This document shows, in pieces, positions 7,431 to 50,551 of a DNA stretch of 64,000 nt; position 1 is the stretch's first letter; every line of letters begins with the position of its first letter. This DNA is from an uncultured virus (IMG/VR IMGVR_UViG_3300005573_001079) (lineage: Duplodnaviria > Heunggongvirae > Uroviricota > Caudoviricetes). The stretch lies in the IMG/VR virus record IMGVR_UViG_3300005573_001079, positions 62,001 through 126,000 of that record. The stretch is one strand, 5' to 3'. The notes under the pieces were generated by a model, which searched no databases, was not told the DNA's origin, and worked only from the letters and a program-made list of their open reading frames with translations. The position numbers and the translations under genes were made by a program.

Positions 7431-7468
7431 ATATTCTCCTTCTTTTTCTTTATACCTTTAATACATAT

Positions 7469-7479: not shown

Positions 7480-7494
7480 AAAAAATAAGCTAAA

Positions 7495-7986: not shown

Positions 7987-7994
7987 AACTAATA

Positions 7995-15480: not shown

Positions 15481-15492
15481 AATCTAAAATAA

Positions 15493-16056: not shown

Positions 16057-16161
16057 ATTATATCTCCTTTTTTTGTTAATTGATTTTTTTAATTATATAA
16101 TCAAAATAGCGTTTATTTTGATTTCTAAAAAATTATTTAAAATATATTATACAAATTTGTC

Positions 16162-17797: not shown

Positions 17798-18129
17798 AAT
17801 TTTACCTCTTTATTATGTTTTTTCTTAGTTACCTTTTTTAAAATTTCTTCTGCTATTTCTTCTGCAAAATCGTGTAAAGTAGAAGAGCAAATAGAAGAAC
17901 AACTAGTAAAAATTTTTACTATATAACTATAAATTATCTCAACAAGTTCAATTTTTGTAATTTCTTTACTAATATCAATAATCGGAACATCTTTACTATA
18001 CGCAACTACGTTTTGGACTCTTTTAGAATTTCCTTGAAAAGAAACATACCAAATACCTTCAAACAAATCGGGTATACTTAATCCTGCGGGTTTATATCTT
18101 TTACCAACTTTTATATAATATACATCCAT
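17794..18129 (-). CDS. Hypothetical protein
   Basis: 111 aa ORF in the operon. Confidence 0.55.
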
Positions 18130-18134
18130 TTGTA

Positions 18135-18980: not shown

Positions 18981-19077
18981 TAAATCACCTCGCTAATTAC
19001 TAACTTTCCTTCTATATAAAATTTAATTTTTTTCATCAACTTTAATCCTTAAATTTTAACAACATAAAACAAATAAA

Positions 19078-19878
19078 CTACGATAAGCTCATTTGATCTC
19101 TCATATCTTTGATACTATTTATCAACATTTGAGGGTGGGATGAATGTGCATAAATAAACTCATCGGGATCTTTTGCCCCCTCTAAATCTAGAAAACCTAA
19201 TTTAATATTATCTAAACGTTTGGACATTTCTATAACTTTTTGTTTGGCTTTTCTTCCTGCATCATCATTATCAAAACAAAAAATAAAGTAATCTGCAAAA
19301 GTTTTCAACAATAAAAAATGAGTATACATAAAAGACGTTCCAAAAGGAGACACTACAATATGAATACCTGCTTTATAACAAGAAATTACATCTACATTGC
19401 CCTCTACAACAAATACGGTTCTGTATTTGATAATAGAATTTAAAGACTGATATAAACCATATAAAGATAAAGATTTTTGAAAAATTTCAGAAGTTTTAGT
19501 CATACGATATTTTGGTAAAGAATTATCTAATGTTCTACCACATATTGCTATTACATTTCCCTTTAAATCAAAAATAGGAAAAATTAAATGATGAGAAAAA
19601 AAACTATGATAAACATTATCATTATTTTTTTTCAAAACTCCTATTCTTTCTAAAAGAATTGGATCTATTTGATAAGTCTCAAAAAAGTTCTTATTGTATA
19701 CAATTCCAGGATCATAACCAATCAAAAATTTATCAATCATATTACTATCAATTCCCCTTTTACTACAATAATCTAATCCTTTTTGACTGTGAAAGAGAGA
19801 CTTCCTATAAAAATTCGCTAAATGATTCAAAGATAAAACAGCATCTTTATAATGTTTAAATAAAGCATCCAAATTCAT
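19078..19878 (-). CDS. DnaG-type primase catalytic core (no zinc-binding domain)
   Basis: LIFPIFD..GNVIAICGR, PKY, VVEGNVDV, CFDNDDAG, KDPDE. Confidence 0.9.
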   Translation of the reverse strand: MNLDALFKHYKDAVLSLNHLANFYRKSLFHSQKGLDYCSKRGIDSNMIDKFLIGYDPGIVYNKNFFETYQIDPILLERIGVLKKNNDNVYHSFFSHHLIFPIFDLKGNVIAICGRTLDNSLPKYRMTKTSEIFQKSLSLYGLYQSLNSIIKYRTVFVVEGNVDVISCYKAGIHIVVSPFGTSFMYTHFLLLKTFADYFIFCFDNDDAGRKAKQKVIEMSKRLDNIKLGFLDLEGAKDPDEFIYAHSSHPQMLINSIKDMRDQMSLS

Positions 19879-19899
19879 AGTATGTCTCTGAATATAAAA

Positions 19900-21537
19900 T
19901 CAAGATTGCGCTGACTGAGTAAAAAGTCTATCAATATAATCTTTCTCTTCGTCTGATAAAGATATAATACCTTTAGTAGTCAAAAACATACCCGCAACAG
20001 AAACTGCGTTTTCTAAAGAAAGTCTTGTTACTTTTACAGGATCAATCACTCCTATTTCAAATAAATCCCCAAAAGTATTATTCAAAACATCATACCCAAA
20101 ATTTATATTTTTAGAGTCTAAAACTTCTTTTAAAATCGCATCTCCTTTTAATCCTGCATTCTCACATATACTTAGAAAAGGAATCTCTAAAGAATTATAC
20201 AAAATATTTATCCCTATTTTTTGATCCTCAATGCTTCCTTTAACAAACTTTACGTCACTTAAATCTTTCAAAACTTCTCTTGCTCTTAACAAAGCTACCC
20301 CGCCTCCTGCGACAATACCTTCTTCTAATGCCGCGGACGTTGCATGTAATGCATCTTCTATCCGCATTTTCTTTTCTTTTAATTCAGTTTCTGTAAATGC
20401 ACCTACTCTTAATACAACAATGCCTCCTGTTAACTTACCTAATCTCTCTCTTAATTTTTGTTTATCATATTCTATTTCCGTGTTATTAATTTGTGTCTTT
20501 ATTTGTTCAATAGTTTCTTGAATCTTTTTTGGATCTCCTTTTCCTCCGAAAATAATAGTTCTATCTTTACTAACAACAACTTTTTCTGCTTTCCCTAAAA
20601 TAGAAGTAGTAGCTTGAGTTATAGGAACAACATCTCCAAACACAGTCCCTCCAGTAAAAACAGCGATATCATTAAGCAAGTCTGTTCTTCTGTCTCCATA
20701 TCCAGGAGATAATACTGCACAACAATTCAAAACCCCTTTAACACTATTCAACAATAATAATTTGAGTATGTCATCACTAAAATCATTTGCAATTACTAAT
20801 AAAGAAGAATTTCCTTTATGATACACCTCTTCCATTATTTGTTTTAAGTACATATTATTAAGAATATCATTATATATCAATATATAACAATTTTTTAATT
20901 CTACTTCCATACTATCTTTTTTATTAATAAATCCTATTGATTTATATCCTCGATCAAACTGCATTCCCTCCGCAACATCTATGATAGTTTGAGGTCCTTT
21001 ACTCTCTTCTACAATTACAACTCCATCTTCTCCCGCTTTTTCAATAGCATCTGTAATAATTTCTCCTATCTCATAATCATTGTTTGCGGATATACTAGCA
21101 ACATTAATTAAGTCTTCTCTACTTTCTATTTTTCGAGAAATTTCTTGCAAACGACTCACTACCATCTTTACTCCAATATCCATACCTCTTTTCAAATCTA
21201 TAGGATTCGCACCAGCTACTATATTCTTAATACCATAAGTAATCAAAGAATGGGACAATACTGTTGCGGTTGTAGTTCCATCTCCTGCTATTTCATTAGT
21301 TTTTAATGCAGCTTCTTTAACGATCTGAGCTCCTAAATTTTCAATTCCATCTTTAACAAACACTTCTTTTGCAACAGTAACCCCATCTTTAGTAATCAAG
21401 GGAGATAATCCGGGTCTTTCTATAATTACATTATTGCCTTTAGGTCCTAAAGTACATTTTACAATATTTGCTAAATAATCTACACCTTTTTTCAACTTAA
21501 TTAGAGCATCTTCATAAACAATATTTCTTTGTTTCAT
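19900..21537 (-). CDS. groEL: Chaperonin GroEL (phage-encoded)
   Basis: TLGPKG, TKDGVTVAKE, GDGTTTATV, EGMQFDRGY, EEGIVAGGG, GVIDP; no GGM tail. Confidence 0.97.
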   Translation of the reverse strand: MKQRNIVYEDALIKLKKGVDYLANIVKCTLGPKGNNVIIERPGLSPLITKDGVTVAKEVFVKDGIENLGAQIVKEAALKTNEIAGDGTTTATVLSHSLITYGIKNIVAGANPIDLKRGMDIGVKMVVSRLQEISRKIESREDLINVASISANNDYEIGEIITDAIEKAGEDGVVIVEESKGPQTIIDVAEGMQFDRGYKSIGFINKKDSMEVELKNCYILIYNDILNNMYLKQIMEEVYHKGNSSLLVIANDFSDDILKLLLLNSVKGVLNCCAVLSPGYGDRRTDLLNDIAVFTGGTVFGDVVPITQATTSILGKAEKVVVSKDRTIIFGGKGDPKKIQETIEQIKTQINNTEIEYDKQKLRERLGKLTGGIVVLRVGAFTETELKEKKMRIEDALHATSAALEEGIVAGGGVALLRAREVLKDLSDVKFVKGSIEDQKIGINILYNSLEIPFLSICENAGLKGDAILKEVLDSKNINFGYDVLNNTFGDLFEIGVIDPVKVTRLSLENAVSVAGMFLTTKGIISLSDEEKDYIDRLFTQSAQS

Positions 21538-21579
21538 AACAAAGATTTCTCCTTAATTTATTAAAAACTAAACAAACTA

Positions 21580-22089
21580 TTATTTTTTGTTTCTCATTTC
21601 TTTAGATAATTCTTCTAAAAGAATTTTAGAAAAAGCAATAATCTCTTTAGCTGCATCTCTTCTAATAGAATCTCCTCCTTTAGCTAATTGAGAAGGATGA
21701 AAATGAGAAACATAAGTAGCATAAAAAGACCCAGCAGTATTAAAAATAAACTCTTTAAGCTCCTCAATGGATAAAGAAAAACTGCTCGAGGACGGAACCT
21801 CTATCTTACTTTCAAATTCAGTTGTTGTAGTATTAGAAAATTGATTTTTATACTCTTCCATTTCTTCTACATCTTCATCATCATCGTCTAAATAATTATC
21901 TACATCATCTTCATCTATAACTTCATCATCTATAACTTCATCATCTAAATAAATATCATCTAAATCTGAGTTAGTTGCTTTGGCTTTTTCCTCTAAAAAA
22001 GCATCATTTTTTAACTCTGTCTGAGAAGGCTTAACATCTTTCTGTAAAATGTTCTTCCTTTCTCCTACTGTTATTTTTCCCATAGTCAT
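21580..22089 (-). CDS. Acidic hypothetical protein
   Basis: D/E-rich tract; 15-bp tandem repeat at 21911-21947 (DDEVI). Confidence 0.6.
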   Translation of the reverse strand: MTMGKITVGERKNILQKDVKPSQTELKNDAFLEEKAKATNSDLDDIYLDDEVIDDEVIDEDDVDNYLDDDDEDVEEMEEYKNQFSNTTTTEFESKIEVPSSSSFSLSIEELKEFIFNTAGSFYATYVSHFHPSQLAKGGDSIRRDAAKEIIAFSKILLEELSKEMRNKK

Positions 22090-22117
22090 TCTCCTTTAAT
22101 TTATTAATAAAAATAAG

Positions 22118-24721
22118 TTATTTATGAAATTCAAACTTTTCTCTTAACATTTCTCTAATAATGCTCCAATCTTTAGTTAAATCTACCTCAACTAAAGACC
22201 CCCAAGATTTTCCTATTTTAATTTCTGGAGATAAAGGAACAATTAAATCAGAAACTTCGGGATTCAACATTTTATTATACAAAAGTTTAGAAACGAATTC
22301 TAATTCATCATCTGGAACATTAAATACTAAAGAATCATATACAGTTAAGACAAGTCTTGATCTCAAGCTTCTTTTTCTTATCTCTCTAAATACTTTTACG
22401 CAAGACAAAAATGTTAAATCAGAAGCAGCACTCTGTATAGGGCTATTTATTGATTGTCTTTCTGCTTCTGCTCTTAGACCTTGATTCGAACTATTTATAT
22501 TTAAAAGTCTCCTCCTTCTTCCAAATAAATTAACAACATATCCATCTCTCTTTGCTAAAGCGGTGGTTACTGCAAGCCATTTCTTTGCTACTTTATATCG
22601 ATTAAAAAAAGTATCAATAATACGTTGAGCTAATGAAGGAGAAACTCCTAATTGTTCTGATACACTCTTCGCACCTCTCCCATACATTATTCCAAATATT
22701 ATCAACTTCGTATCTTGTCTTTCTGCTTTTGTAACATCTTTCGTAATTTCTAAAAATTCTTCGTATGAAATATCTCTATTAGGTATAGGCACTTTTTTAT
22801 AAGCAGCAGCTGCCATTAATTTATGAATATCTATTCCATTTTGTAAATCTCTTAAAGCTTGTGGATCTTTACTGTAATTAATCCATATTCTAAATTCTGC
22901 TTGACCTTGGTCTACTTCTACTAACCAATCTGACGTTCCATCCTCATAACGATCCGCACAAAAAATATCTTTAATATCCTCTGCAGTTCCAGTACGCGGA
23001 ATGTTATTTAAATTAGGATTTCTAGAACTCGGTCTACCAGTAACTGTCCCAAACAATAAATAATCTGTATGAACTTTATCTCCTACTAATCTTTTCTTAA
23101 TACCATCAAGAAAAGTACTTTTAAGATGAGACAAAGTACGATATTTTGCTAAGTATTCGCAAAACTTATTAGCTTTAGAATACTCTAATAATACTTCGTC
23201 ATCTAAACTAGGATTATTCTTAACAGTAGTTTTTATTATAGGTAACTTCATCTTCTCTATAAGAAGTTCTTTTAATTGTTTAGGAGAATTAATGTTAAAA
23301 ACAAATCTTGTTTCCTCTTTCTTAAACTCTAAATAATCTTCAAAATTAGGAAATCTTTTTTGTAAAAAAGCAGAACTTTCCCATTTTTCATATAGTTCTT
23401 TTATTTTTTCATTAGTCTTTTCTAATTCAAATTGTTTTACCTGAGGTACTTCATAAATTTTTTGTAAATACTCTTCCATTTTCTTTTCATACTTCTCAAT
23501 AGTTTTATTTAAATAATCAATATCTATACTAACCCCGCAAAATTCAGTTTGAATCAAAATTCTCTGCATAGGCATCATTATCTCAAACAATACAAAATCA
23601 AGTTTTTGTTCATATATCTCAGGTAACATTTTGTTATAAGATCTTAAAGTACAATCAACATCTTTAAGAGCATATAGATACAAAATTTCTCCTGGAATAT
23701 CAGAATAATTAGATATTTTATTTTGTAACTTATATTGATTAAGAGGAATATCATATCTTCCTAAATCTGTGTACTTTTCTGAAAGAACTTCCAAACCATG
23801 TGGACTATTTTCATCGAGTAAGTGATCCATCAAAATAGTATCACAATAATAATTATTAACTATAATACCTCGAGATAAAAGAAATTCAATATCAAAAGAT
23901 CCATTATGTGCAATCTTTTTAGAATTATTTTCAAAAACTTCTTTCAACTTATCAAAAATATAATCTTTATCTATTTTTTGTGTTAAAATTCTTAAATCAA
24001 TTAGTACTCCGGTATTCTCCATCCAAGAAAATGTAAGTATAAAAATCTCATCTTTCATAAAATCTAAACCAGTGGTCTCAATATCGAAAGCCCACAAATC
24101 ATTTTCGTGTAATTGAGAAACTAACCAATCAAATTGTGCTAAATTCGTAACAACTTTATAATCAACAGGAGATTCATTTTCTATTTTAATTTTACCTTGC
24201 AAAAAATCTTTTACAGTTCTTAAATCATTAGTAAATTTAGTTCTTTCTTGAGGATTTCTAAGTATATAAGCAGGATGAAATAATGGGATAATCTTACAAT
24301 TATATTCTTCACAATCAAATATCTTACCATGTACTCTTGTTATACCCCCTACTCCTTTTAAAAACTTTTTAAGAGGAGTATTACCTAAAGTAACAATAAC
24401 TTTTGGTTTTAAACTTAAAATATCTTGTTCTAAAAATTCAAAACAGCTTTCAACCTCTTTCGGTAATGGAACTCTATTATCTGGAGGTCTACATGCACAA
24501 ATATTTCCTATAGAAACTTTCTCTCTATCAATACCTACCTCTCTTAAGCACGCATTTAATAAATTTCCAGCATCTCCTACAAAAGGAATGCCTTTCTTGT
24601 CTTCTTCTACTCCAGGAGCTTCTCCTATAAAGAATATCTCCGAACCTTCAACAATTACTGAAGGAACTACTTGTGTCCTATTTTTATATAATTCACATTT
24701 TTGACAATTCAAATCATACAT
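22118..24721 (-). CDS. polA: Family A DNA polymerase with N-terminal family-4 uracil-DNA glycosylase domain and 3'-5' exonuclease
   Basis: UDG: CQKC, GEAPG, CRPPDNR, HPAY. Exo: DIETTG, HNGSFD. Pol: TGRPSS, DQGQAEFR, KLIIFGIMYG, NSPIQS, VYDS. Confidence 0.93.
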   Translation of the reverse strand: MYDLNCQKCELYKNRTQVVPSVIVEGSEIFFIGEAPGVEEDKKGIPFVGDAGNLLNACLREVGIDREKVSIGNICACRPPDNRVPLPKEVESCFEFLEQDILSLKPKVIVTLGNTPLKKFLKGVGGITRVHGKIFDCEEYNCKIIPLFHPAYILRNPQERTKFTNDLRTVKDFLQGKIKIENESPVDYKVVTNLAQFDWLVSQLHENDLWAFDIETTGLDFMKDEIFILTFSWMENTGVLIDLRILTQKIDKDYIFDKLKEVFENNSKKIAHNGSFDIEFLLSRGIIVNNYYCDTILMDHLLDENSPHGLEVLSEKYTDLGRYDIPLNQYKLQNKISNYSDIPGEILYLYALKDVDCTLRSYNKMLPEIYEQKLDFVLFEIMMPMQRILIQTEFCGVSIDIDYLNKTIEKYEKKMEEYLQKIYEVPQVKQFELEKTNEKIKELYEKWESSAFLQKRFPNFEDYLEFKKEETRFVFNINSPKQLKELLIEKMKLPIIKTTVKNNPSLDDEVLLEYSKANKFCEYLAKYRTLSHLKSTFLDGIKKRLVGDKVHTDYLLFGTVTGRPSSRNPNLNNIPRTGTAEDIKDIFCADRYEDGTSDWLVEVDQGQAEFRIWINYSKDPQALRDLQNGIDIHKLMAAAAYKKVPIPNRDISYEEFLEITKDVTKAERQDTKLIIFGIMYGRGAKSVSEQLGVSPSLAQRIIDTFFNRYKVAKKWLAVTTALAKRDGYVVNLFGRRRRLLNINSSNQGLRAEAERQSINSPIQSAASDLTFLSCVKVFREIRKRSLRSRLVLTVYDSLVFNVPDDELEFVSKLLYNKMLNPEVSDLIVPLSPEIKIGKSWGSLVEVDLTKDWSIIREMLREKFEFHK

Positions 24722-24726
24722 AACTT

Positions 24727-25542
24727 TTATTTAACCCAACTTAAAATTTTTTCAATATTATAAACTATACAATTATATTGTTCTGTGTTTAAAACAGTAG
24801 AATCAGAAAAGTTTACTTTTTCTAAAATCTTTTCGCAAGGAAGACCTCTATCAGTATACTTAATACAATGCTTACCATGAATATATGCAGAAGAAGAATC
24901 ATTAGAATGAATCCAATAATAAGAATCTCCTTTATATCTTTGTAACTCTACAGCATCGCTTAGTCCCATTAAATGTGTTGGTTTAACAATCTTTTGTGAA
25001 GATGCTCTTATATATCTATTTATACGATCTACTAAATACCACCTGTTTAAAACTCTTTTTAAAGTTTGACTCTTTATATTATCAGATACTCCTTCAATCT
25101 CAAAATCAAGAGAAAAAGGAAGTCCAATATAAGATATTTTAGAATGGTTGTTCCAAAAGAAAAAAGACCCTATAATTTCATCTACATTTTTTCCTTGAGC
25201 CATTGCTAATATTGGAATATTACAATTTCTAGATGAATGTAATTCAATAAAGTCTAACACCATCTTTTTCGTTTCTGCTGCGTCTTCCCATGCTTCTGGG
25301 GCAACTACTACAGAAACTTGTAAATCTTCTGCAATATCCAATAAAGCATTTGCATCAAAACTTGTTCCTAATTCAAAAATAGAATTATCTAAAATGACAA
25401 AATCTTTTTCACGTATACGCTTTCTATAAAATTCATAATATTTTGAATCCGACTGTAACACATGTGGTAAAATAAGATGGTACTTAGATTTTGTTGCAAA
25501 ATCTTCTAAATAAGAAGTTGGACAAATAATACAATGCTGCAT
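24727..25542 (-). CDS. Divergent TGT/DpdA-like 7-deazaguanine transglycosylase
   Basis: VILDNSIFE (cf. LDSGAF), AMAQG, HLMG, SNDSS: TGT-barrel motifs in the expected order; in the que operon. Confidence 0.65.
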   Translation of the reverse strand: MQHCIICPTSYLEDFATKSKYHLILPHVLQSDSKYYEFYRKRIREKDFVILDNSIFELGTSFDANALLDIAEDLQVSVVVAPEAWEDAAETKKMVLDFIELHSSRNCNIPILAMAQGKNVDEIIGSFFFWNNHSKISYIGLPFSLDFEIEGVSDNIKSQTLKRVLNRWYLVDRINRYIRASSQKIVKPTHLMGLSDAVELQRYKGDSYYWIHSNDSSSAYIHGKHCIKYTDRGLPCEKILEKVNFSDSTVLNTEQYNCIVYNIEKILSWVK

Positions 25543-25557
25543 TTTTCCTCCTGTAGT

Positions 25558-25908
25558 TTAATTATCTCTCTTTAAAGATTCTAAATACTTAGATAGTTTA
25601 TTACTTTCTATATCCATAGAATTTTTAACAAATTTTATTTCTATTATTAAAGATCGTACTAAATTTTTTATAAAAGAAGGGAAAAGAGAAAGTAAAAACA
25701 AAAATCTTACAAACGTAACAAATCCTTGTTTTTCCATCTCAAACATTTGTCTTTCTTTTAAATTCATAACATATATTTCAAGATCCTTTCTTTTTTTATC
25801 CTTTTCTTTTAGATAAGAATTATACCAACGTTGAGAATTCAATAGGAAAGTCATAAATAAAAAGAGAATTAATATAATAATTAATTGTTCCATACAAACA
25901 CCTCGCAA
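25558..25908 (-). CDS. Small membrane protein
   Basis: Two hydrophobic segments. Confidence 0.5.
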   Translation of the reverse strand: MRGVCMEQLIIILILFLFMTFLLNSQRWYNSYLKEKDKKRKDLEIYVMNLKERQMFEMEKQGFVTFVRFLFLLSLFPSFIKNLVRSLIIEIKFVKNSMDIESNKLSKYLESLKRDN

Positions 25909-26543
25909 TCTTTAAATTCTATAATATTTTTAGAAATTTCTGAAACTTTATTTTTAATATACAAAGTAGAAAAAAAATAAACATTTCCATACTCGTCTTC
26001 CCCTCTATACAATATCTTGTTTTTCATAAATGCATATAAAGAAGAATTAAAGCAATCTAAACAAATACAAGCGGCTTCTCCGTCAATAACAGAAAGAACA
26101 TCCTTGATAGCGTCTTTTTGTTTTATCTTTTGAGATAAAAACAAATGTAAAAGTCTTACAATCAATTCAGTATCAACCTGTGTATCTTGATAAATATTAT
26201 ATTTTTCTTCGAATAATTTCTTTTGCTTCTCATAATTATACAAAACCCCATTATGTACTAAAGAAAGATTATCAAATGTTATAGGTTGATTATTAGAAAA
26301 ATCAAGACCGAAAATTGCATAACGATTTTGACCAATAATTTTATCTCCTTTCTCTAAAGCCAAATCAAAAGATATATCCCTTGCTCGTATAGGCCACTTA
26401 TAAGTATAAAACTTTTTATTTCTAAGCAAGGTCAATCCAGTTCCATCTTGACCTCTGATATCTGAAGCTTTAAGTAATTTAAAATAAACTTCTGTAGCAA
26501 AAGAAGGATTATTATTAACTATACATCCTGTTATTCCACACAT
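25881..26543 (-). CDS. Class II (Ntn) glutamine amidotransferase, stand-alone
   Basis: Start placed at MCGITG (Cys2 nucleophile); RGQDGTG, NRYA, QP, HNG, DTE. Confidence 0.85.
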   Translation of the reverse strand: MCGITGCIVNNNPSFATEVYFKLLKASDIRGQDGTGLTLLRNKKFYTYKWPIRARDISFDLALEKGDKIIGQNRYAIFGLDFSNNQPITFDNLSLVHNGVLYNYEKQKKLFEEKYNIYQDTQVDTELIVRLLHLFLSQKIKQKDAIKDVLSVIDGEAACICLDCFNSSLYAFMKNKILYRGEDEYGNVYFFSTLYIKNKVSEISKNIIEFKDCEVFVWNN

Positions 26544-27142
26544 ATATCTACACACTCCAATTCTAAATTTTCAATACTGTTAAATACATCTACATTAGGA
26601 CCAGAAAAAAGATAAACACCTTGTTTTAATCCTTTAGTAACTAAATCTTTAATTAAACATACTTCAAAATCCTTTGGTTTCTGTGTCCTTGACAAAGATA
26701 CTTCTTTAAACCACCCTATATCTATATAACAATTTCTAAGAGATGAACGAAGAGGTTTTTCTTTCTTATTAGAAAAAACTAATAATTGTTCAGTACAATT
26801 TCTATATGTATTGCCTAATCCATAATGTAATTTTTTATGAGGAGTTTCTTTTACCCAAGTTATAATAGTTTTATAAACATAGTTATTAAAATTTGTCTTA
26901 AAAACTTCTTCTATCATTGAATTAGTACACCACAAAAATAAATATTTTGTATTTAAAAGACTAAATAAGGTATTTAACCCTTGAACATTATCCCATCTTG
27001 AATAAGTGAGATTATTAGAAATAGCAGGATTTTCTTTATCTTTATAATCCCAAGGAGGATCCACAATAGCAAAATCTTTTTCCGTAGCAGTTTTTAAATA
27101 GTCAACATAATCACTTTTAATTTTTATTACCATTACTCTCAC
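26531..27142 (-). CDS. MT-A70 family N6-adenine (amino) methyltransferase
   Basis: VDPPW, LFLWCT, ITWVK, GLG..YRNCTEQLL, QKP. Confidence 0.85.
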   Translation of the reverse strand: MRVMVIKIKSDYVDYLKTATEKDFAIVDPPWDYKDKENPAISNNLTYSRWDNVQGLNTLFSLLNTKYLFLWCTNSMIEEVFKTNFNNYVYKTIITWVKETPHKKLHYGLGNTYRNCTEQLLVFSNKKEKPLRSSLRNCYIDIGWFKEVSLSRTQKPKDFEVCLIKDLVTKGLKQGVYLFSGPNVDVFNSIENLELECVDICVE

Positions 27143-27190
27143 ACTTTTTTTTTGTTAAACAACTTCTTTTATTAAAAAATCATTCCTATT

Positions 27191-27907
27191 TTAAATACTT
27201 TTGTTTTGCTCCCATTTTTCTAAAACTTCTTTCCATTTATCTTCATTAACTAATGGATCTCTTACACCTGCTTCTATAAACCCTTTTATTCTCAACTTAC
27301 AAGTATCACATTCTAAGCATGGTTCTTCTTCTCCTTTATAACAGCTCCAAGTATATTCATAAGGCACTTTCAAAATATTTCCTATCTCAATAATTTCAGA
27401 CTTATATAAGTGAAGTAAAGGAGTTCTTAATTTTATAGTTCCTCCAGTTGTAGTTTTTTTAGTAGCATTATTTATTAAATTTTGCCACGCTTGTATATAC
27501 TCTGGTCGAGTATCTGGATATCCGCTTGCATCTACTGCAGTAACTCCAGTAAATATAGCATCCGCGTCTATTTCTTCTGCATATTGTAATGCATAAGCAA
27601 TAAATAATGTATTTCTAGCGGGAACATAAGTAACTGGAATTTCTTTACAAATTTCTTCTAGCGATCTTCCTTGTGGAACTTCAATACTATCAGTTAATGC
27701 ACTTCCTTTTGGAGTTGGTAAGTTTATTATTCGATGTTCTTTTACTCCTGCAATTTCTGCCACCCTCTTAGCACATTCAATTTCCTTAGAATGTCTTTGC
27801 CCATATAAAAAGGTTAGAGCATATAATTCGTGTCCTTCTTTTTTTGCAATAAATAGACACGTACTAGAATCTAACCCTCCGCTAAGTATTACAACCGCTT
27901 TTTTCAT
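27191..27907 (-). CDS. queC: 7-cyano-7-deazaguanine (preQ0) synthase
   Basis: SGGLDS, YGQRH, TYVPARN, GYPDTR, WSCY...C..C..C. Confidence 0.96.
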   Translation of the reverse strand: MKKAVVILSGGLDSSTCLFIAKKEGHELYALTFLYGQRHSKEIECAKRVAEIAGVKEHRIINLPTPKGSALTDSIEVPQGRSLEEICKEIPVTYVPARNTLFIAYALQYAEEIDADAIFTGVTAVDASGYPDTRPEYIQAWQNLINNATKKTTTGGTIKLRTPLLHLYKSEIIEIGNILKVPYEYTWSCYKGEEEPCLECDTCKLRIKGFIEAGVRDPLVNEDKWKEVLEKWEQNKSI

Positions 27908-27935
27908 AAAAACCTCCCTTTTATTAATTTATTAC

Positions 27936-27966
27936 AATAAGAGGAAGACATTGTCCTCCTCTTATT
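27936..27966 (-). promoter_or_regulatory. RNA hairpin upstream of queC (possible attenuator, terminator or processing site)
   Basis: Minus strand AATAAGAGGAGGACA-A-TGTCTTCCTCTTATT; 15-nt arms with one G-U pair. Confidence 0.55.
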
Positions 27967-27985
27967 AAGTTAGGAGAAAAAATAA

Positions 27986-28567
27986 TTATTGAACTTGATT
28001 TTCTTTAATATGACTAATTATTAAATTAACTCTTTCCTTTATATCCGTTGTTTTTACTTCTATAAAAGGAATATTAAAATCTTTTAGTATCTTTCTTATT
28101 TTTTTATCCACTAAAAGTCTTCCTTTTTCTTTTCTTATATCATCTTGTACATAAGGAATAATCGGAGGGAAATAAAACAAAAGTATTTTTATTCCTGGTG
28201 TATTAAACAAATTTTTAATAAACTCAATATTTAAAGACTTTAAAAAAGAAGAACTCTTAATTGATAATGTATAAGCTGTTGTACAAATAGGAGTTCTTTC
28301 TGATAATACAACACAACTTTCACTATTAATTCCTTTCCAAAACAAATTCATTAATTGAGAAGTAATTACAATTTGATTATACTCATTACTTTCTACATCA
28401 ATTTTATCATCAATGACTTTTTTTCTAATAAGATCTCTTACAAACTCACTAATTACAAACGTAGAAATTCTCATAGAATCTAACTCTTTCTTCACTTTTT
28501 TTAAAAGAGTTGTTTTTCCAGTACTATTAGTACCAGTAAATAATACTAACAATTTTTGATTAAACAT
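27986..28567 (-). CDS. P-loop nucleotide kinase/ATPase (NadR/AAA_28-like)
   Basis: GTNSTGKTT, SEFVR, SERTPI, DDIR; start at ATG 28567 with RBS. Confidence 0.75.
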   Translation of the reverse strand: MFNQKLLVLFTGTNSTGKTTLLKKVKKELDSMRISTFVISEFVRDLIRKKVIDDKIDVESNEYNQIVITSQLMNLFWKGINSESCVVLSERTPICTTAYTLSIKSSSFLKSLNIEFIKNLFNTPGIKILLFYFPPIIPYVQDDIRKEKGRLLVDKKIRKILKDFNIPFIEVKTTDIKERVNLIISHIKENQVQ

Positions 28568-28606
28568 ATTTATCCCCTTTTCATTTTTTCTATAAATAAA
28601 ATACAA

Positions 28607-29176
28607 TTATAAAAGAAAATATTGCTTCATTTTGTTATACACACCTATTTTGTTTGGAATATGTGCATCTGTAGAATACAAAAAGTTTAATCTTTCTTTA
28701 ACTTCTTTATAAAAATTAACCAAATGTTTTCTTAAATATCTTTCATTCAATTCAACTAAAACATTTTGTGCTAAACAAAATGAAATAAAGTCTTCAATCA
28801 CAAAATCAGAAAGAGGTATTGTCTCTTTATGAAAAGGATGACCTAAATGATGTACTCTTGTAAGTAATGGATAGATACTCTTTAATACTTCTAAATAATG
28901 TAAAGAATCTTTATAAGTATGTAAAGATAAAATTATTTTATAATTTTTCTCTTCTAATTCTTTAATATCCCGTTCCATTTTATTATAATTTGAATTTGAG
29001 CTTAACTCTATCCCTATATTAATCTTACCTCTAAATTCTTCTAATCCTCTTACAAAATCATTTAACCTCATTTGATTTTTATGTATCACCATAATGCCGT
29101 CTGTTATTACATTATTAATATAATAATCATATTGATTATGATAGCGTGGATCATAATGAAAATGATAGTCTTTCAT
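28607..29176 (-). CDS. PHP-family phosphatase (histidinol-phosphatase-like)
   Basis: DYHFH, GIE, SLH, GHP, ELN, STDAH. Confidence 0.75.
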   Translation of the reverse strand: MKDYHFHYDPRYHNQYDYYINNVITDGIMVIHKNQMRLNDFVRGLEEFRGKINIGIELSSNSNYNKMERDIKELEEKNYKIILSLHTYKDSLHYLEVLKSIYPLLTRVHHLGHPFHKETIPLSDFVIEDFISFCLAQNVLVELNERYLRKHLVNFYKEVKERLNFLYSTDAHIPNKIGVYNKMKQYFLL

Positions 29177-30300
29177 ATTATTTCCTTAATTCTATTACAC
29201 ATCTCTTTTATAACATCAAAAGAAGTAAATAAAGGAGGAGTTAATAATATTCTATTTTTAATTTTTCTTAATAATACACCTTTTTCTAAAAACTCTTTAG
29301 TGCTAAGTCTGTCTAAATAAAAAGAAATTAACATTCCTTTTCTGTTATAATCTTTCATATCAGAAAAAAATTCATCAAATATTTTACCTTTACATTCTAT
29401 ATAATCATAAATACTTTTATAAGATGATATGTTTTCTAATATATGAAGAGCAGCACGCGCTGCAATCAAATTAAATGCAAAAGTACTACTATAAAATCCT
29501 CTTTTCAAAGAGAAATTATCAAATAAATTAGATTTATAAAAAACTCCATAAAGAGGAAGACCTCCTCCTATACTTTTTCCAAAAACAATAACGTCAGGAT
29601 CTATTCCAAAATATCCTTGATATGAAAAAACATTTCCCGTTCTCCAAAATCCTGATTGTACTTCATCTACAATTAATAATATATCCATAGATTTAGCAAC
29701 ATCAAACAACTTCTTAAAAACATCTTGCTTTAAGAAAACTCCTCCTGAATTTGCAATCGCACAAGGTTCTACAATAATAGCAGCAACATCCCCTCGAAAA
29801 AGACTTAAAAAATGTTCAAAATTTTCAAAAGAAAAATCTTTGTTGTGAATAGAATCATATAATATTATACTTGAATCATAAAAAGTGTGTTGCAAAATAA
29901 CTTCTCTTCTTCCTGAAAGAGAACCAAATTTTCCATGGTATTGACCATCAAACATTATTACATATTTTTTTTGAGTATATAACTTTGCAAAATGAATAGC
30001 ACTAATAACAGAATCGGTACCACTCGCGGTATAAGATATAAAATAATTATTCGATACAAGATCCTCTAACTTTGAGGTCAGCATCTTTCTCAATTCACTA
30101 TTAAACTCATAAGCAGTTGGAAGTGCATTATACTGTTCTCCTATTACTTTAGATAAAGTAGGGATCCACAAAGAAGTAGAACATGAAAAAGAATGTGCGT
30201 CAAAGTATTCTTTGTTATTAATATCTAATAATACTCCAGGTTCTTTATATTTCTTAAAAACAATATCAAAATCATATATATAACTACTTGTTATTTCCAT
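29173..30300 (-). CDS. Class III PLP-dependent aminotransferase
   Basis: SGTDS, YHG, IIVEP, IVDEVQSGFWRTG, FGKSIGGGLP, STF. Confidence 0.9.
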   Translation of the reverse strand: MEITSSYIYDFDIVFKKYKEPGVLLDINNKEYFDAHSFSCSTSLWIPTLSKVIGEQYNALPTAYEFNSELRKMLTSKLEDLVSNNYFISYTASGTDSVISAIHFAKLYTQKKYVIMFDGQYHGKFGSLSGRREVILQHTFYDSSIILYDSIHNKDFSFENFEHFLSLFRGDVAAIIVEPCAIANSGGVFLKQDVFKKLFDVAKSMDILLIVDEVQSGFWRTGNVFSYQGYFGIDPDVIVFGKSIGGGLPLYGVFYKSNLFDNFSLKRGFYSSTFAFNLIAARAALHILENISSYKSIYDYIECKGKIFDEFFSDMKDYNRKGMLISFYLDRLSTKEFLEKGVLLRKIKNRILLTPPLFTSFDVIKEMCNRIKEII

Positions 30301-31157
30301 TATTTATTCCCTCCATATAACATTTCATAAATTTCTTCCTTAGTTTTTCCCTCTGCCATAAGTTGTTTCTTCAATTCTTTTATTTCTTTTTGTCTTTTTC
30401 TTATAGCATCCTTTACTTGTTCTGGTGTCCAAGATTTTCTTGCATCTACATGAACTCCTTTACTTAACTTAGATAAAACATCATTTAATTCCCCTAAAGT
30501 TTCACTATTAAGTAATTGAAAAACATTCATTTTCATTAAATTATCCTTAATTTTCTCAAAAGTAATCTCACTTGGTATTTCTATTAAAGGCTTATTCAAC
30601 TGATCACAAGCATACTTAAGAGCTTTTTTACCTTTACTCGTAACTCTAAATACTCCGATTACATACTTATAATCAAACTTTTCTAAAAACTTTTTTACTC
30701 TATCCCCGATTACTTGATAAAAAACTTTTTTTATTTCTTCTGGAGTTCTATGATTATCATCCCACGCATAATGAGCAAAAGGATAATACTTTTCATATTG
30801 GGTTGGTATAACTCCAATAGAAGAAATGGTTACTAAATCATAAATATCATCATAAGGTTTAGTAGCGCCAATTATCTTTTTATAAGTATGAGTCGTAGAA
30901 TAAGGTTTTTTTGCAGTACAATTTGTAAAAAGAACTATATCGTGAAGAGGTTTAAAATTATCTAAAACAAATTGAAAAGCCCTTTCAGGATGTGGATGAT
31001 AAAAATGTTCTTTTACTGGATGCAATAAAGGAGAATCCGGACCCAAATCCCATTCATTTGGTGGAATAATTTCTTTTTCATCCCCTACTAAAGAAGTAGT
31101 AACATTACGGGATTTGGAAATAGAATTATAAAAATTCCTAGAATTAAAAAGATTCAT
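30300..31157 (-). CDS. ArcS-like (DUF5591) archaeosine-synthase core domain protein
   Basis: FTNCTAKKPYS (cf. ArcS PCSxxKPYS), SSIGVIP..YE..YPFAHY.W. Confidence 0.75.
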   Translation of the reverse strand: MNLFNSRNFYNSISKSRNVTTSLVGDEKEIIPPNEWDLGPDSPLLHPVKEHFYHPHPERAFQFVLDNFKPLHDIVLFTNCTAKKPYSTTHTYKKIIGATKPYDDIYDLVTISSIGVIPTQYEKYYPFAHYAWDDNHRTPEEIKKVFYQVIGDRVKKFLEKFDYKYVIGVFRVTSKGKKALKYACDQLNKPLIEIPSEITFEKIKDNLMKMNVFQLLNSETLGELNDVLSKLSKGVHVDARKSWTPEQVKDAIRKRQKEIKELKKQLMAEGKTKEEIYEMLYGGNK

Positions 31158-31192
31158 TTTTTTTTACCCTATTACTTATTATTTATATACAA

Positions 31193-31203
31193 ATATAATA
31201 CAA
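31193..31203 (-). promoter_or_regulatory. Putative phage promoter motif TTGTATTATAT
   Basis: Exact copy, 36 nt upstream of the ArcS-like gene. Confidence 0.45.
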
Positions 31204-31213
31204 AATCAACTAA

Positions 31214-31855
31214 TTATTTCAATGACTTCACAAATTTAATTAAAATTTCTATTTTTTCCTCATCCATTTCTTTTTTTACTTCCTCCCACTCTACCCCTTC
31301 AAAAACAATCTTTTCAACATACGGTCTTATATCATTTGGCACGCTACACCAAAAATCAACATCGTCTCCTTCTTTCTCACATCCGTGATTTGAGTCCAAA
31401 ATAATATCAAATTCTTCTCTATCGTAATATTGTATTTCAATAACGTTATTTTTGCTAATCCTCCTATGTTCATTAGTTAGGATATTATTAACAATTAATC
31501 CCAACCTCTTTGAAAAGGTTTGATTATTGTACATAGGTCCGTAATACTGTAAGGACCTATAAGTCGAAAATCTGACTTCACTTATAAGGTCTTCAACATC
31601 AATACTTTCATTATAACTTCTACTTCTAATACAAGACTTAAAAATATAAGGGAAAATAAACCCCCACAGCTTTTCGAATCCCCTATCGTCCACATTATAA
31701 AATTCCCTTATCTTTCCTTTGTTCTTTCCTCTTATGTAATAAGGAAGGATTTTTTGTTCCTCGAAGATTTTAAATCTTTCTTCCAGAGAAGTGATGGGGG
31801 AACATATTGAATATGTAATATCATCAATAATTTTTTGTAATGATTGGATATCCAT
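31214..31855 (-). CDS. Divergent sigma-factor-like protein (region 2)
   Basis: DVEDLISEV...SLQYY...TFSKRLGLIVNNIL. Confidence 0.55.
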   Translation of the reverse strand: MDIQSLQKIIDDITYSICSPITSLEERFKIFEEQKILPYYIRGKNKGKIREFYNVDDRGFEKLWGFIFPYIFKSCIRSRSYNESIDVEDLISEVRFSTYRSLQYYGPMYNNQTFSKRLGLIVNNILTNEHRRISKNNVIEIQYYDREEFDIILDSNHGCEKEGDDVDFWCSVPNDIRPYVEKIVFEGVEWEEVKKEMDEEKIEILIKFVKSLK

Positions 31856-31957
31856 TTTTTTCTCCTAACTTTTAAAAAAATGTTAACTAAAATATAATAA
31901 ACAAAATGAAATAATCCAAATCTTTTTTTTATTTTTTTTTTATTTTTTTTTAAATTG

Positions 31958-32884
31958 TTAATAAAATATCCAATTAACTGATTTACTAGAAGAAAGTACA
32001 TTAAAAGGATGTATTGATTCTTCATTCTCAACTTTCAAAGACCACGCTAACACTTTTGGATTGTTTTGTAACATAATTTGTAAATCCCTTGCAATATCTT
32101 CAGAAAATTTAGGATTTTTATAACCTTTCTCAGTAACCCATCTTTCATCAGCTCTTTTTAAAAGTGGAAAAGTAGGAGCAGAAGCTTGAGCTTCTATAGA
32201 TTTTATCAAATCTTCTATATATAAACTATCATCTTTATCAACTTGAATCTCTATTTTAATTAATGAACGTTGATTATGAGCTCCTAAACCTACAAATCTT
32301 CCTATATCTTTATAAAATTCTATATCTTTAGAACACTTACACTCCGCGGAAATTTCATTTATTATATAATCATTTTGTAATAAACTCATTTCTTTACTAC
32401 AAGGACAAACAGATGCAGCAACTACATTAACTTCTAAAAGAAAATAAGTATTTCCATTCTTTTTTATACCAGTCATTGCACACAAATAAGACATCGGAGC
32501 AATTTTTTTAGAAACAGGAGCTTTTTTATTTATGTAATAATCAAATTCAAATCTTGCATAAACATCTTTACTTCCTAACCGTCTTTGCATATCTACTAAT
32601 ATATCTTCTAAAATTTGAAAGTTTAAAATTGAAGAATGATTATCCTTAAAAAACACTAAAACTTCCATAAATCTACTCAAATTATGTCCTTTAGCACTTT
32701 CGGGTAAAGAAGCAAATAATTTTACTTTAGCAGAGGCATTAACTTGAGACCCATCTTTTCTTAAAATAATAATAGGAAACTTTATATTAGTAAGCCCTAC
32801 TCTTTCTAATCCTATGCCTCGAGGATCTTGAGAATTTTGAACATCTGGTAAAGTTTTTGTTAATTCTTCTATTGAGTTAGACAT
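31958..32884 (-). CDS. folE2: GTP cyclohydrolase IB
   Basis: LPDVQ, VGL, KGHNLSRF, SVCPCS, AHNQRS, LKRADE, NPKFSED, ESIH. Confidence 0.93.
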   Translation of the reverse strand: MSNSIEELTKTLPDVQNSQDPRGIGLERVGLTNIKFPIIILRKDGSQVNASAKVKLFASLPESAKGHNLSRFMEVLVFFKDNHSSILNFQILEDILVDMQRRLGSKDVYARFEFDYYINKKAPVSKKIAPMSYLCAMTGIKKNGNTYFLLEVNVVAASVCPCSKEMSLLQNDYIINEISAECKCSKDIEFYKDIGRFVGLGAHNQRSLIKIEIQVDKDDSLYIEDLIKSIEAQASAPTFPLLKRADERWVTEKGYKNPKFSEDIARDLQIMLQNNPKVLAWSLKVENEESIHPFNVLSSSKSVNWIFY

Positions 32885-32898
32885 ATCACTTCTCCTTT

Positions 32899-33390
32899 TT
32901 ATTTTTTTTGATGTAAAAATTCATTATAAATTTGTAATAATTCTTCTTCACTAAAATTATATGATAAAATACAATTACATATATACAACCAATAGTTTGT
33001 AGAATCTATTGGTACAATTGGTAAATTATTTAAAATCTTGTATAGAATTCTTTGAGAAAGATTTCTATTATCTTTTTTTACTTGTTCTCTTTTATAAAAA
33101 TCTATTTTCTTTTGTAAAGTATTTAAGTCATAATTATTATTTCCTTTCAACAATAAAAAAGCTTCTCTATCAGTTATTCCTTCCAATAACGCCACAAACC
33201 TAACTATACCTCCTCCTTTTCCACAAGAAAAACAATTAAACAAACCAGTTTTTTTATTAATCTTAGCATTACCAAAATGATGGTCATCATGAAAAGGACA
33301 TAAAATATCTATTTCATCAGAGTAAGAATTTTCTCTATAACTTATATTATACTTGTTTAATATATTGATTATATCAATATTAATACTCAT
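32899..33390 (-). CDS. Stand-alone CHC2 primase zinc-binding domain protein
   Basis: CPFHDD...FNCFSCGKGG; directly downstream of dnaB. Confidence 0.85.
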   Translation of the reverse strand: MSINIDIINILNKYNISYRENSYSDEIDILCPFHDDHHFGNAKINKKTGLFNCFSCGKGGGIVRFVALLEGITDREAFLLLKGNNNYDLNTLQKKIDFYKREQVKKDNRNLSQRILYKILNNLPIVPIDSTNYWLYICNCILSYNFSEEELLQIYNEFLHQKK

Positions 33391-33404
33391 ACATTTTTTT
33401 TGCT

Positions 33405-34736
33405 TTATTGTTCATACCCTGGATATATTATTTTTCTATCCCCTACGTAACAAAATGCAGGATTTGCAAATGTAGTAAAAGTAACATTCTTTTGACCATA
33501 TCTATTTTTTCTTATCGTCCAATGTAATTGATTTGTAGCAGCATCAATTCCATTTGGATCCTGATGTAAAAAAACAATAACATGAAAAGGATTAGTAACA
33601 TAATGAGATTCTGAAATATTCTCTAAATCTCTTTTCTCTCCTTCCTTAATCTTTTTCCCTTCTCTATTCAATTGCATACTTGTAATTAAACGAGTTCCAT
33701 ATGTACGAGCTATAACTCTAAGTTCTGACGCAAGCAACTTAAACTTTTCGGAACTACTACTATAACTTCCTAAAGGCTCCATTTCATTCAAATAATCAAT
33801 TATAACTGCATCTGGATACTTTCCTGTTTTAGCAAAATATAACTCTATCTCTTTAATAACATCTCCAGAAGTAGCTTTATCTGGAATATCTACAATGTAA
33901 AGAGGATATTTGTTTTCAACAATATCTATTAACTTCTCTCTATAAATACCTCTATTTACATTCAATTTACCAGAAACTATATCCTTAAACTCTAATAAAG
34001 AATGTCTCGCATCAATCATTCTTTGATAATCTCTTTGGTCTCCAGAACCAGGAACTTCAAGTGTAAGTACCATTGTATCTTTTTTCTCTATAAAAGCATA
34101 ATTATATGCAATAGACAATTTAGTAAGGGTTTTAAATTCTCCAGTTCCTGCAACAATTAACATCATATGAGTTTTTCTTAAACCTCCATTAGTATAATAA
34201 TCTAAGTCGTTTATATGAAAAGGTATTGCTGTACTTTCAATAGTTTTGGATTCTACTCCTTTATAATACTCCCATCTTTCTACGGCAGAATCATAAATAA
34301 ATTCTCTATTACTTTCTTTTATACCAAAAGGATTTACTAATTCAGATAAAACAGATATTTTCTCTCTTACAATTTCCCTTGGATTCTTTGATTGTAATTC
34401 CTCTGGTAACTTTGATGCTACATCAAATAACTTGCGTGAACAAAACATATCAAATAAATCTTGAATTCTAACATTCAGTTCTTGCAAAGTAATATTAATT
34501 TCTTTTAATTCTAAAACTAAAATTTTTACGTCCGGATCATTTGTCTTATCAATAATTATATCAGGAGTAGGAAAAGTAGAGTAAGGAGGTCTTAGAATTT
34601 TTTTAAATTCTTTATAACATCTTCTGTGTAGTTCTTCCTCAAACCAGCTTTCTGGAATCTCTTTCCAAAATTCTGGGCCTTTTAAGAAGGCAGCTAATAC
34701 TAACTTTTCGACTTGAGGATCTTTAAATTTTATCAT
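33405..34736 (-). CDS. dnaB: Replicative DnaB-like helicase
   Basis: GGLR, AGTGEFKT, TLE, IIDYL, QLNR, KNRYG. Confidence 0.85.
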   Translation of the reverse strand: MIKFKDPQVEKLVLAAFLKGPEFWKEIPESWFEEELHRRCYKEFKKILRPPYSTFPTPDIIIDKTNDPDVKILVLELKEINITLQELNVRIQDLFDMFCSRKLFDVASKLPEELQSKNPREIVREKISVLSELVNPFGIKESNREFIYDSAVERWEYYKGVESKTIESTAIPFHINDLDYYTNGGLRKTHMMLIVAGTGEFKTLTKLSIAYNYAFIEKKDTMVLTLEVPGSGDQRDYQRMIDARHSLLEFKDIVSGKLNVNRGIYREKLIDIVENKYPLYIVDIPDKATSGDVIKEIELYFAKTGKYPDAVIIDYLNEMEPLGSYSSSSEKFKLLASELRVIARTYGTRLITSMQLNREGKKIKEGEKRDLENISESHYVTNPFHVIVFLHQDPNGIDAATNQLHWTIRKNRYGQKNVTFTTFANPAFCYVGDRKIIYPGYEQ

Positions 34737-37696: not shown

Positions 37697-38446
37697 CTAA
37701 ACTCCTCTTTTATTGTCATAAGCAACAATGTGAATTCTATCAGTATAATTATATCCTTTTTTAATACAATACTCTATTAAAGGAACTCTAATCTTATCTA
37801 ATTCCTCTCTCGTAGCTCCTGCAGGCATCAAATATACCTTACAGTTTGGAATTTTTAGTTGTTTTACCATTTCTTCAATTTCTTCAATATCCTTCTCAAA
37901 GTTAGATACTACTGGCTTAAATTGATAATCATAATAAGAAATAAGTTGTAACATAATATCATAATTATTCCTTAATGATTTATGACGAGTAACCCAAGCT
38001 TGAGGAACTTTGATAACTTTATCTCCTGCTTTGTAAAGACCTCCAACTTTAGGAGTAGTACTTGATAATTTAGGAGATAAAGAAATAAAATCTGCTTTTG
38101 TTTTTACAAAAGCAATACCGGCTGTCTCTATAGTAACAAAATGACCAAAATCTTTCGCAATATTTACCAACCTATTTAACAAAGTTGGATTTGAAGTAGG
38201 TTCTCCTCCTGTTATCATAGTATGCTTTATATGAGAATTTTTTTTATAAAAGTTTATAAGTGTACTCTCTACAACACGAAAAGGTTCAGGAGCCCAACTA
38301 GTATACCAGCTATCACAAATAGAACTTCCAAAAACACATCTCATAGGACATCCTACCATACGAACTAAAATATGAGGGACTCCTGTATATTTTCCTTCTC
38401 CTTGAATACATGTGTAAAACTCTGATATTCCTATTTCTTTTTCCAT
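37697..38446 (-). CDS. queE: 7-carboxy-7-deazaguanine synthase (radical SAM)
   Basis: IQGEG, R..GCPMRC......CDS, TGGEP, IETAG, SPK, RIH. Confidence 0.92.
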   Translation of the reverse strand: MEKEIGISEFYTCIQGEGKYTGVPHILVRMVGCPMRCVFGSSICDSWYTSWAPEPFRVVESTLINFYKKNSHIKHTMITGGEPTSNPTLLNRLVNIAKDFGHFVTIETAGIAFVKTKADFISLSPKLSSTTPKVGGLYKAGDKVIKVPQAWVTRHKSLRNNYDIMLQLISYYDYQFKPVVSNFEKDIEEIEEMVKQLKIPNCKVYLMPAGATREELDKIRVPLIEYCIKKGYNYTDRIHIVAYDNKRGV

Positions 38447-47317: not shown

Positions 47318-47342
47318 AAACCTTTCTATATAATCTAAAATA

Positions 47343-47777: not shown

Positions 47778-47789
47778 ATAAATTATTCC

Positions 47790-49310: not shown

Positions 49311-49316
49311 TCCCTT

Positions 49317-50500: not shown

Positions 50501-50551
50501 AAAGCCTCCACAAAATTTCTTATTTTTTTCTTAAAAAAAAATGTTTTATCA

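Follow-up and report, generated by a model that had tools for sequence, protein, structure and literature searches.

A rare three-gene unit that probably tailors 7-deazaguanine in the DNA of an uncultured phage

Eight 7-deazaguanine bases are known from DNA, and the role of the ArcS homologues encoded by phages has been called unclear in the literature. Archaeal ArcS adds lysine to the nitrile of 7-cyano-7-deazaguanine (preQ0), and the radical-SAM enzyme RaSEA then trims the adduct to archaeosine (G+) (PMC11298593). ArcS proteins that have the core domain only were named ArcS2 by Cui et al. (PMC10516641), and a phage example, accompanied by the transglycosylase DpdA2, is found in Vibrio phage nt-1 (Hutinet 2019, PMC6884629; Cui 2023, PMC10516641). 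Here we describe a 64,000-base stretch of an uncultured phage (the window), which spans bases 62001-126000 of the 128,925-base IMG/VR record IMGVR_UViG_3300005573_001079, with an estimated record completeness of 74%. Three consecutive minus-strand genes in the window encode an ArcS2-like protein of family DUF5591 (30300..31157), a class III aminotransferase (29173..30300) and a PHP-fold protein (28607..29176). Together they probably form a rare, conserved unit that decorates an inserted 7-deazaguanine in an undescribed way.

The locus shares with nt-1 a stand-alone DUF5591 core with a degenerate motif, encoded beside FolE, QueD, QueC and a DNA transglycosylase, which would act downstream of preQ0. 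It differs in the length of ArcS2 (226 amino acids in nt-1, 285 in the window), in having DpdA3 instead of DpdA2 and in the two companion genes, as the annotation of nt-1 shows neither an aminotransferase nor a PHP gene within 5 kb of its ArcS2. With the archaeal ArcS-RaSEA pair it has in common the family of the catalytic core and, in the scheme proposed below, the addition of an amine to the preQ0 nitrile followed by the action of a second enzyme, whereas the window protein lacks the TGT-like and PUA domains as well as a radical-SAM partner, and its expected substrate is DNA and not tRNA.

The product of 30300..31157 matches Pfam DUF5591 at E = 2e-12 (47.6 bits, cutoff 26), and among PDB sequences it finds 2q07 (9.6e-10). 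The original prediction had proposed an ArcS/DUF5591 fold for this protein, with structure prediction as the way to check it, and the model bears this out. The AlphaFold (AF2) model, built on 62 homologues, has a predicted local distance difference test score (pLDDT) of 93.8; its sole Foldseek match at E<=0.001 is 2q07, the DUF5591 protein AF0587 (1.6e-7), and VIA-align superposes the two with Z 16.2 and a root-mean-square deviation of 2.5 Å over 139 residues, against Z 6.5 for the runner-up. A helical C-terminal extension begins at about residue 197. Pfam found DUF5591 alone, and neither the TGT-like N-terminal domain nor the PUA domain, and the protein therefore corresponds to ArcS2; it scores 46 and 37 bits with the ArcS models of NCBIfam, whose cutoffs are 600 and 440. 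By tblastn it reaches the ArcS2 region of nt-1 (1e-6; 24% identity, query coverage 44%). The C1 motif of ArcS is given as PC-X3-KPY-X2-S-X2-H (PMC10516641), and the corresponding region here, NC-TAK-KPY-ST-T-HT-Y, retains its Cys and KPY (NCTAKKPY). Across the 62 homologues C80 and P85 are invariant and Y86 is at least 90% conserved. With this fold and these residues, the protein is predicted to be a nitrile-to-amidine enzyme.

The wider family was surveyed with HMMER over 1.84 billion representative sequences, which returned 284 DUF5591 relatives at E<=0.001; 44 of them, a set enriched for long proteins, were scanned with Pfam. Two (P0144 and P0161) are true ArcS with TGT, DUF5591 and PUA domains. 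Viral scans with the queries P0013, P0014 and A6 gave no match, nor did a scan of genome contigs with query A1. A scan with query A7 led to a 197-kb viral contig (L022), in whose region 6342..8401 a 495-residue DUF5591 protein is encoded, overlapped by an upstream gene for a weakly matching HAD-like hydrolase (2.5e-4) and also preceded by a cytidylyltransferase-like gene; the C-terminal half of this DUF5591 protein found no match in the ESM Atlas. This may be a second pairing of an ArcS core with a phosphatase, but the hydrolase match is too weak to be used.

The second gene (375 amino acids) had been read as a class III aminotransferase, and its family match and catalytic residues agree with this. 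Pfam Aminotran_3 (PF00202) is matched at 1.3e-44 (152.9 bits, cutoff 30.5), the best PDB match is the acetylornithine aminotransferase 2eh6 (1.7e-28, aligned end to end), and in comparison with 2eh6 the lysine for pyridoxal phosphate (PLP) in FGKSIGGG, the Asp of DEVQ and the SGT loop are all in place. The catalytic K242 and D212 are invariant across 32 aminotransferase sequences; scores with NCBIfam models all stay well below the cutoffs. All three module copies have exchanged the Arg of HGR for Lys and the Glu of QGEGG for Asn, positions that are at least 80% conserved in 29 acetylornithine-type relatives, and relative to the same 29 they also share G219W, G251Y, D269F and H270Y. In the acetylornithine/ornithine/GABA aminotransferase subgroup the Arg of HGR and the Glu of QGEGG belong to the substrate site. 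The clade-specific substitutions in the active site fit a new substrate, and the protein is a divergent class III (fold-type I) PLP enzyme with a remodelled substrate site. Only two close homologues were found, 49% and 42% identical and both on module contigs, and beyond them the best near-full-length matches are 27-31% identical.

The third protein (189 amino acids) has no Pfam match at E<=10. Among the four members of its lineage that were scanned PF02811 was never matched, the closest family being CpsB_CapC (0.03, in two of the four), and a profile of the PHP alignment returned only spurious matches among PDB sequences. The NCBIfam model hisJ_fam scores 25.8 bits (7.5e-6), below its cutoff of 90.2. 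The PHP fold that had been proposed is nevertheless recovered from structure: the AF2 model (pLDDT 90.1) matches the histidinol-phosphate phosphatases 4gyf, 3dcp and 2yxo as well as PolX PHP domains in Foldseek (E about 1e-5, query TM-score (TMq) 0.63-0.72), and the ESM Atlas places the protein among PHP clusters (0.94) with TM 0.79-0.80. All four available sequences have H5, H7, H32, E57, H86, H113, D170 and H172, which the model places at the ends of strands; these eight residues may correspond to the metal ligands usual in PHP enzymes (HxH, H, E, H, H and DxH). On the model, 28607..29176 would thus encode a short PHP-fold phosphoesterase, predicted to be metal-dependent.

The original prediction described four adjacent co-directional genes, of which the fourth, 27986..28606, encodes a P-loop protein of family AAA_28, and all four open reading frames (ORFs) are present on the minus strand. 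The reported stop/start overlaps were likewise read in the sequence, as TAATG at 30300 between the ArcS2 and aminotransferase genes and as ATGA at 29173-29176 between the aminotransferase and PHP genes. At the DNA level the four genes matched none of 50,697 phage records. The ArcS2 clade is rare, with six clusters among 5.8 billion proteins (54-64% identity) that represent six lineages. DNA context was available for four of these, namely the window together with a near-identical 133-kb twin (L001/L009), L010, L002/L003/L012 and L011. The aminotransferase gene directly follows ArcS2 in all four, and the PHP gene comes next in each of the three whose contigs extend far enough. Between L002 and the window ArcS2 is 54%, the aminotransferase 42% and the PHP protein 35% identical, and the core proteins PolA, FolE2, RecA and QueE are 33%, 29%, 33% and 28% identical. 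With core proteins at about 30% identity, the synteny of the trio is not a by-product of close kinship, and such strict synteny argues that the three proteins work together. The trio was also considered as a horizontally moving cassette, which was rejected, as ArcS2 (54%) stands above the core genes in identity but the aminotransferase (42%) and the PHP protein (35%) do not clearly do so.

These observations also bear on a reading in which ArcS2 by itself forms 2'-deoxyarchaeosine (dG+) or a different known derivative, perhaps using ammonia supplied by a nearby amidotransferase, and the aminotransferase and PHP protein are metabolic bystanders. Auxiliary metabolic genes are numerous in phages, the best family matches of the aminotransferase are enzymes of the arginine and lysine pathways, and a class II amidotransferase gene lies 1.4 kb beyond the P-loop gene. 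Bystanders would, however, hardly be expected to keep strict synteny and translational coupling across phages whose replication proteins are about 30% identical, nor to have close relatives in the module only, as is found for the aminotransferase and for the PHP protein, whose lineage comprises two clusters in the database (that of the window and one other). The remodelled active site of the aminotransferase and the lack of an amidotransferase homologue in the L002 fragment speak against this explanation as well, and we consider it quite improbable.

We favour instead a reading in which the trio of ArcS2-like protein, aminotransferase and PHP phosphoesterase acts as a single functional unit and tailors the preQ0 nitrile. 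In this scheme preQ0 would be made by FolE2, QueD, QueE and QueC and inserted into phage DNA by DpdA3. The aminotransferase, with glutamate as donor, would aminate a phosphorylated keto or aldehyde metabolite to an amino-phosphate, which the ArcS2-like enzyme would add to the nitrile carbon, probably via a thioimidate on the invariant Cys80, to give an N-substituted amidine. The PHP enzyme would strip the phosphate before or after coupling, leaving a base of the N-(hydroxyalkyl)-archaeosine type. The scheme accounts for the presence, next to an amine-adding enzyme, of a phosphoesterase and of a transaminase whose substrate site is altered. Sequences and models establish the folds and catalytic residues, as well as the strictness of the synteny and the exclusivity of the three lineages, whereas we infer the substrate, the order of the steps, the product and the site of reaction (DNA or nucleotide). 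We put the probability of the functional unit and its amino-phosphate mechanism, taken together, at about 0.42.

In phage thymidine hypermodification, too, a kinase, PLP enzymes and others decorate a base that is already in DNA with small amines; that system differs in its base, in its pyrophosphorylated 5-hydroxymethyldeoxyuridine chemistry and in having no DUF5591 enzyme. The same three-step logic as in our scheme is found in amidation of the HS:2 capsule of Campylobacter jejuni, where Cj1437 transaminates dihydroxyacetone phosphate, Cj1438C attaches (S)-serinol phosphate and Cj1435 removes the phosphate after coupling (PMC12096443). The likeness is one of logic, and in the capsule pathway the amine is joined to a sugar carboxylate by an ATP-dependent amide ligation.

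Several points weigh against the amino-phosphate scheme. Its support comes from sequence and models, and the identity of the amine and the phosphorylated substrate of the aminotransferase are suppositions. The assignment of the PHP protein rests on its fold, its sequence matches not being significant. The ArcS motif is incomplete, with P->N and H->Y in all six clade members, and its Ser, retained in five of the six, is Thr in the window; the motif of the active nt-1 ArcS2 is likewise called degenerate (PMC10516641). All relatives of the module are metagenomic fragments, and the context comparison covers the ArcS2 lineages other than P0007 and P0009. A nearby stand-alone glutamine amidotransferase could supply ammonia for plain dG+, and the only characterised phage ArcS2, that of nt-1, yields dG+ (PMC10516641). 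In the plasmid assay of the nt-1 enzyme, however, 2'-deoxy-preQ0 (dPreQ0) fell from 926 to 0 per 10^6 nucleotides and only 4 dG+ were formed (PMC10516641), and ArcS2 therefore need not yield mainly dG+.

In an alternative reading, with which the dG+ made by the nt-1 ArcS2 agrees, dG+ is the product here, with ArcS2 adding an amino compound and the PLP and PHP enzymes trimming the adduct in place of RaSEA. Archaeal ArcS stops at preQ0-Lys and needs RaSEA for G+ (PMC11298593), and across the wider family such a partner is usual, as 11 of the 44 relatives scanned have a radical-SAM domain fused to DUF5591, an arrangement that mirrors the archaeal pair. The ArcS2 clade has no such partner, either fused or, in the record of the window, separate, yet is always accompanied by the PLP and PHP enzymes. 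The only match to PF04055 in all 128,925 bases lies inside 37697..38446, the gene for QueE, so that QueE is the single radical-SAM gene of this record (estimated 74% complete), as had been claimed for the window, and a second, RaSEA-type gene is absent from it. However, no PLP or PHP enzyme is known to cleave an N-alkyl amidine, it is not obvious what a phosphoesterase would contribute to trimming, and nt-1 makes dG+ with neither companion gene annotated nearby. We regard trimming to dG+ as unlikely.

Under the amino-phosphate scheme, the trio may write an undescribed base, an archaeosine that carries a small hydroxyalkyl (amino-alcohol) group on the amidine nitrogen and that could replace most or all guanines; ArcS2 proteins would in that case be general amine-to-nitrile ligases, with the neighbouring genes determining which amine each one uses. 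We put this forward tentatively. Replacement on such a scale is conceivable because the phage has DpdA3, a subfamily linked to complete guanine replacement (Cui et al. 2023, PMC10516641). The DpdA3-type DNA guanine transglycosylase is encoded at 24727..25542 (minus strand, 271 amino acids) and was identified by tblastn, with matches in 33 phage records, among them the gene annotated as DNA guanine transglycosylase in Flavobacterium phage immuto (1e-13) and those of Campylobacter phage CP220 (6e-9) and Cellulophaga phage phiST (9e-6), at a coverage of 76-96%. Pfam TGT has no match anywhere in the record, and a DpdA3 hidden Markov model (HMM) found no DpdA on the fragments L002, L003, L010 and L022.

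The three DpdA3 phages just named make the bases designated dADG (CP220), dDG (phiST) and fdPreQ1 (immuto) (PMC10516641). They share with the window a DpdA3 homologue and an AAA_28 or other P-loop gene beside it, and immuto, like the window, also has PolA and GroEL in the neighbourhood. They differ from it in that no ArcS2, aminotransferase or PHP gene is annotated within 8-9 kb of their DpdA3, and none of them matched the ArcS2 of the window by tblastn. Conversely, their tailoring enzymes QueC*, DpdL and DpdN/QueF are not among the Pfam matches of the window.

The AAA_28 gene had been counted as a kinase and the fourth member of the module, a role that the comparison does not uphold. Its product (206 amino acids as listed) matches AAA_28 at 2.5e-16 (60.8 bits, cutoff 27), has the P-loop GTNSTGKT and is NadR-kinase-like. 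The most likely start is the ATG at 28567, with the ribosome-binding site AAAGGGG 6 nucleotides upstream; this leaves a gap of 40 nucleotides after the PHP gene, and the AAA_28 gene is therefore not translationally coupled. It does not stand beside the trio in L002 or L010, the two other lineages with downstream DNA. In contrast, CP220 gp057 and immuto gp203 are full-length AAA_28 proteins (1.7e-12 and 3.3e-13) encoded one and two genes from DpdA3, respectively, and phiST gp041, an annotated P-loop ATPase, is encoded directly upstream of DpdA3. An HMM of these three proteins matched only the AAA_28 gene among the 149 ORFs of the window (4.3e-6). Pairwise similarity of the window protein to the P-loop proteins beside DpdA3 is weak, and a tblastn search with it against phages gave no match, so that the link is drawn from Pfam and this small HMM. 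Since the gene does not accompany the trio in either L002 or L010 and its family sits beside DpdA3 in three characterised phages, its sequence and position place it with the DpdA3 gene set and outside the trio, and it appears dispensable for the proposed scheme.

Its presence there also bears on a route via free nucleotides, in which the unit would tailor a preQ0 nucleoside 5'-phosphate, the AAA_28 kinase would phosphorylate it and the phage polymerase would incorporate it, with the PHP protein acting on the nucleotide phosphate. ArcS accepts preQ0 nucleoside and is efficient on its 5'-monophosphate, but is inactive on the base (PMC11298593), all G is replaced in DpdA3 phages (PMC10516641), and AAA_28 kinases stand beside DpdA3 in all three that are characterised. 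Small phosphoribosyltransferase genes adjoin FolE in immuto (L019, 6822..7217) and in L002 (6903..7400); these genes and the AAA_28 gene are a hint that DpdA3 phages may use a route at the nucleotide level. No phosphoribosyltransferase was found in the record of the window, however, Cui et al. conclude that all such phages insert the base after replication (PMC10516641), and the route leaves the role of the aminotransferase unexplained. We therefore consider it very unlikely for this locus, and tailoring by the trio of a preQ0 inserted by DpdA3 remains the reading we prefer.

The 7-deazaguanine DNA-modification cluster lies within the replication module, and all of its genes described here are on the minus strand. 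The preQ0 synthase QueC is encoded at 27191..27907 (Pfam 5.9e-71; TIGR00364 212.9 bits, cutoff 150.3), the GTP cyclohydrolase FolE2 at 31958..32884 (Pfam GCHY-1 3.9e-72), QueE at 37697..38446 (Pfam Radical_SAM 9.9e-7; NCBIfam QueE models 5.4e-17 and weaker) and QueD at 9777..10385 (Pfam PTPS 6.4e-29; TIGR03367 1.7e-17). Residues 3-200 of the 202 in QueD are covered by a PTPS profile of 121 positions, so that a large insertion is implied. The interval from DpdA3 to QueC holds an ORF of 116 amino acids, a stand-alone class II (Ntn) glutamine amidotransferase gene (25881..26543; Pfam GATase_6 8.7e-11; likely start MCGITG) and an MT-A70-like methyltransferase gene (26531..27142; Pfam). The amidotransferase may be the Gat half of Gat-QueC; its phage matches are stand-alone Gn_AT_II or glmS/GlcN-6-P aminotransferase genes, and none is annotated as a Gat-QueC fusion. 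The enzyme could supply ammonia to QueC or ArcS2. The original prediction contained neither the DpdA3 transglycosylase nor this amidotransferase.

In L002 the deazaguanine cluster also includes, at 4174..4788, a gene for a protein of DUF366 (6.8e-32), an archaeal family by annotation, which has no counterpart in the window, and two L002 ORFs of 292 and 314 amino acids matched neither PDB nor phage sequences. The family A DNA polymerase of the window (22118..24721, minus strand) carries an N-terminal domain of the uracil-DNA-glycosylase superfamily (PF03167, 1.5e-33, residues 26-167) ahead of its 3'-5' exonuclease domain, an architecture that is identical in L002.

The window has a G+C content of about 28%, and its minus strand carries nearly all genes. 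The promoter-like motif TTGAAA-16-TATTAT that had been noted ahead of the ArcS2 gene is present at 31222..31195 on the minus strand, with 10 of 12 matches, and is among the top-scoring sites in 24000..33500. That interval holds 62 such sites, against 58.9 +/- 6.9 expected from shuffled sequences, and the motif therefore has no statistical weight. Directly upstream of the ArcS2 gene lies 31214..31855 (minus strand), which encodes a 213-residue protein of no known family; in L010 a homologue with 42% identity is likewise encoded upstream of ArcS2. Searches of Pfam, PHROG and NCBIfam gave no match to it, and the only similarity seen was a non-significant one to ECF sigma factors (E 0.8). This protein may regulate the ArcS2-aminotransferase-PHP unit.

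Farther along the minus strand, 42921..55373 holds a run of sugar-nucleotide and glycosyltransferase genes, with two members of the NAD epimerase/dehydratase family (one resembling GDP-mannose-4,6-dehydratase) and genes for at least six GT2/GT4 proteins, including a GT2+GT4 fusion of 633 amino acids. Further glycosylation of the modified base had been suggested, and no link was found between these glycosyltransferases and the base. The original prediction as a whole is partly supported. Outside the window, 15048..29691 of G000 (L004/L005) contains about 20 tandem paralogues of 150-590 amino acids with repeats of the Receptor-L/LRR_EndoS type, which may be a diversified array of receptor-binding or surface proteins.

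The occurrence of ArcS2 in phage deazaguanine clusters was already known, but its fixed association with an aminotransferase and a PHP protein is, as far as the searchable literature shows, new. No description of an ArcS2-aminotransferase-PHP module was found in the accessible literature, including papers on 7-deazaguanine and DpdA phages since 2024, and the accessible part of the supplement of PMC10516641 contains no match for aminotransferase, PHP or histidinol. With this module it can be tested directly whether the enzymes of the ArcS core select their amine. If the proposed scheme is true, amidine chemistry would extend from ammonia- and lysine-derived groups to designed side chains, phages would possess a new anti-restriction base, and the enzyme pair would provide a means of joining amines to nitrile-bearing DNA that is useful in labelling.

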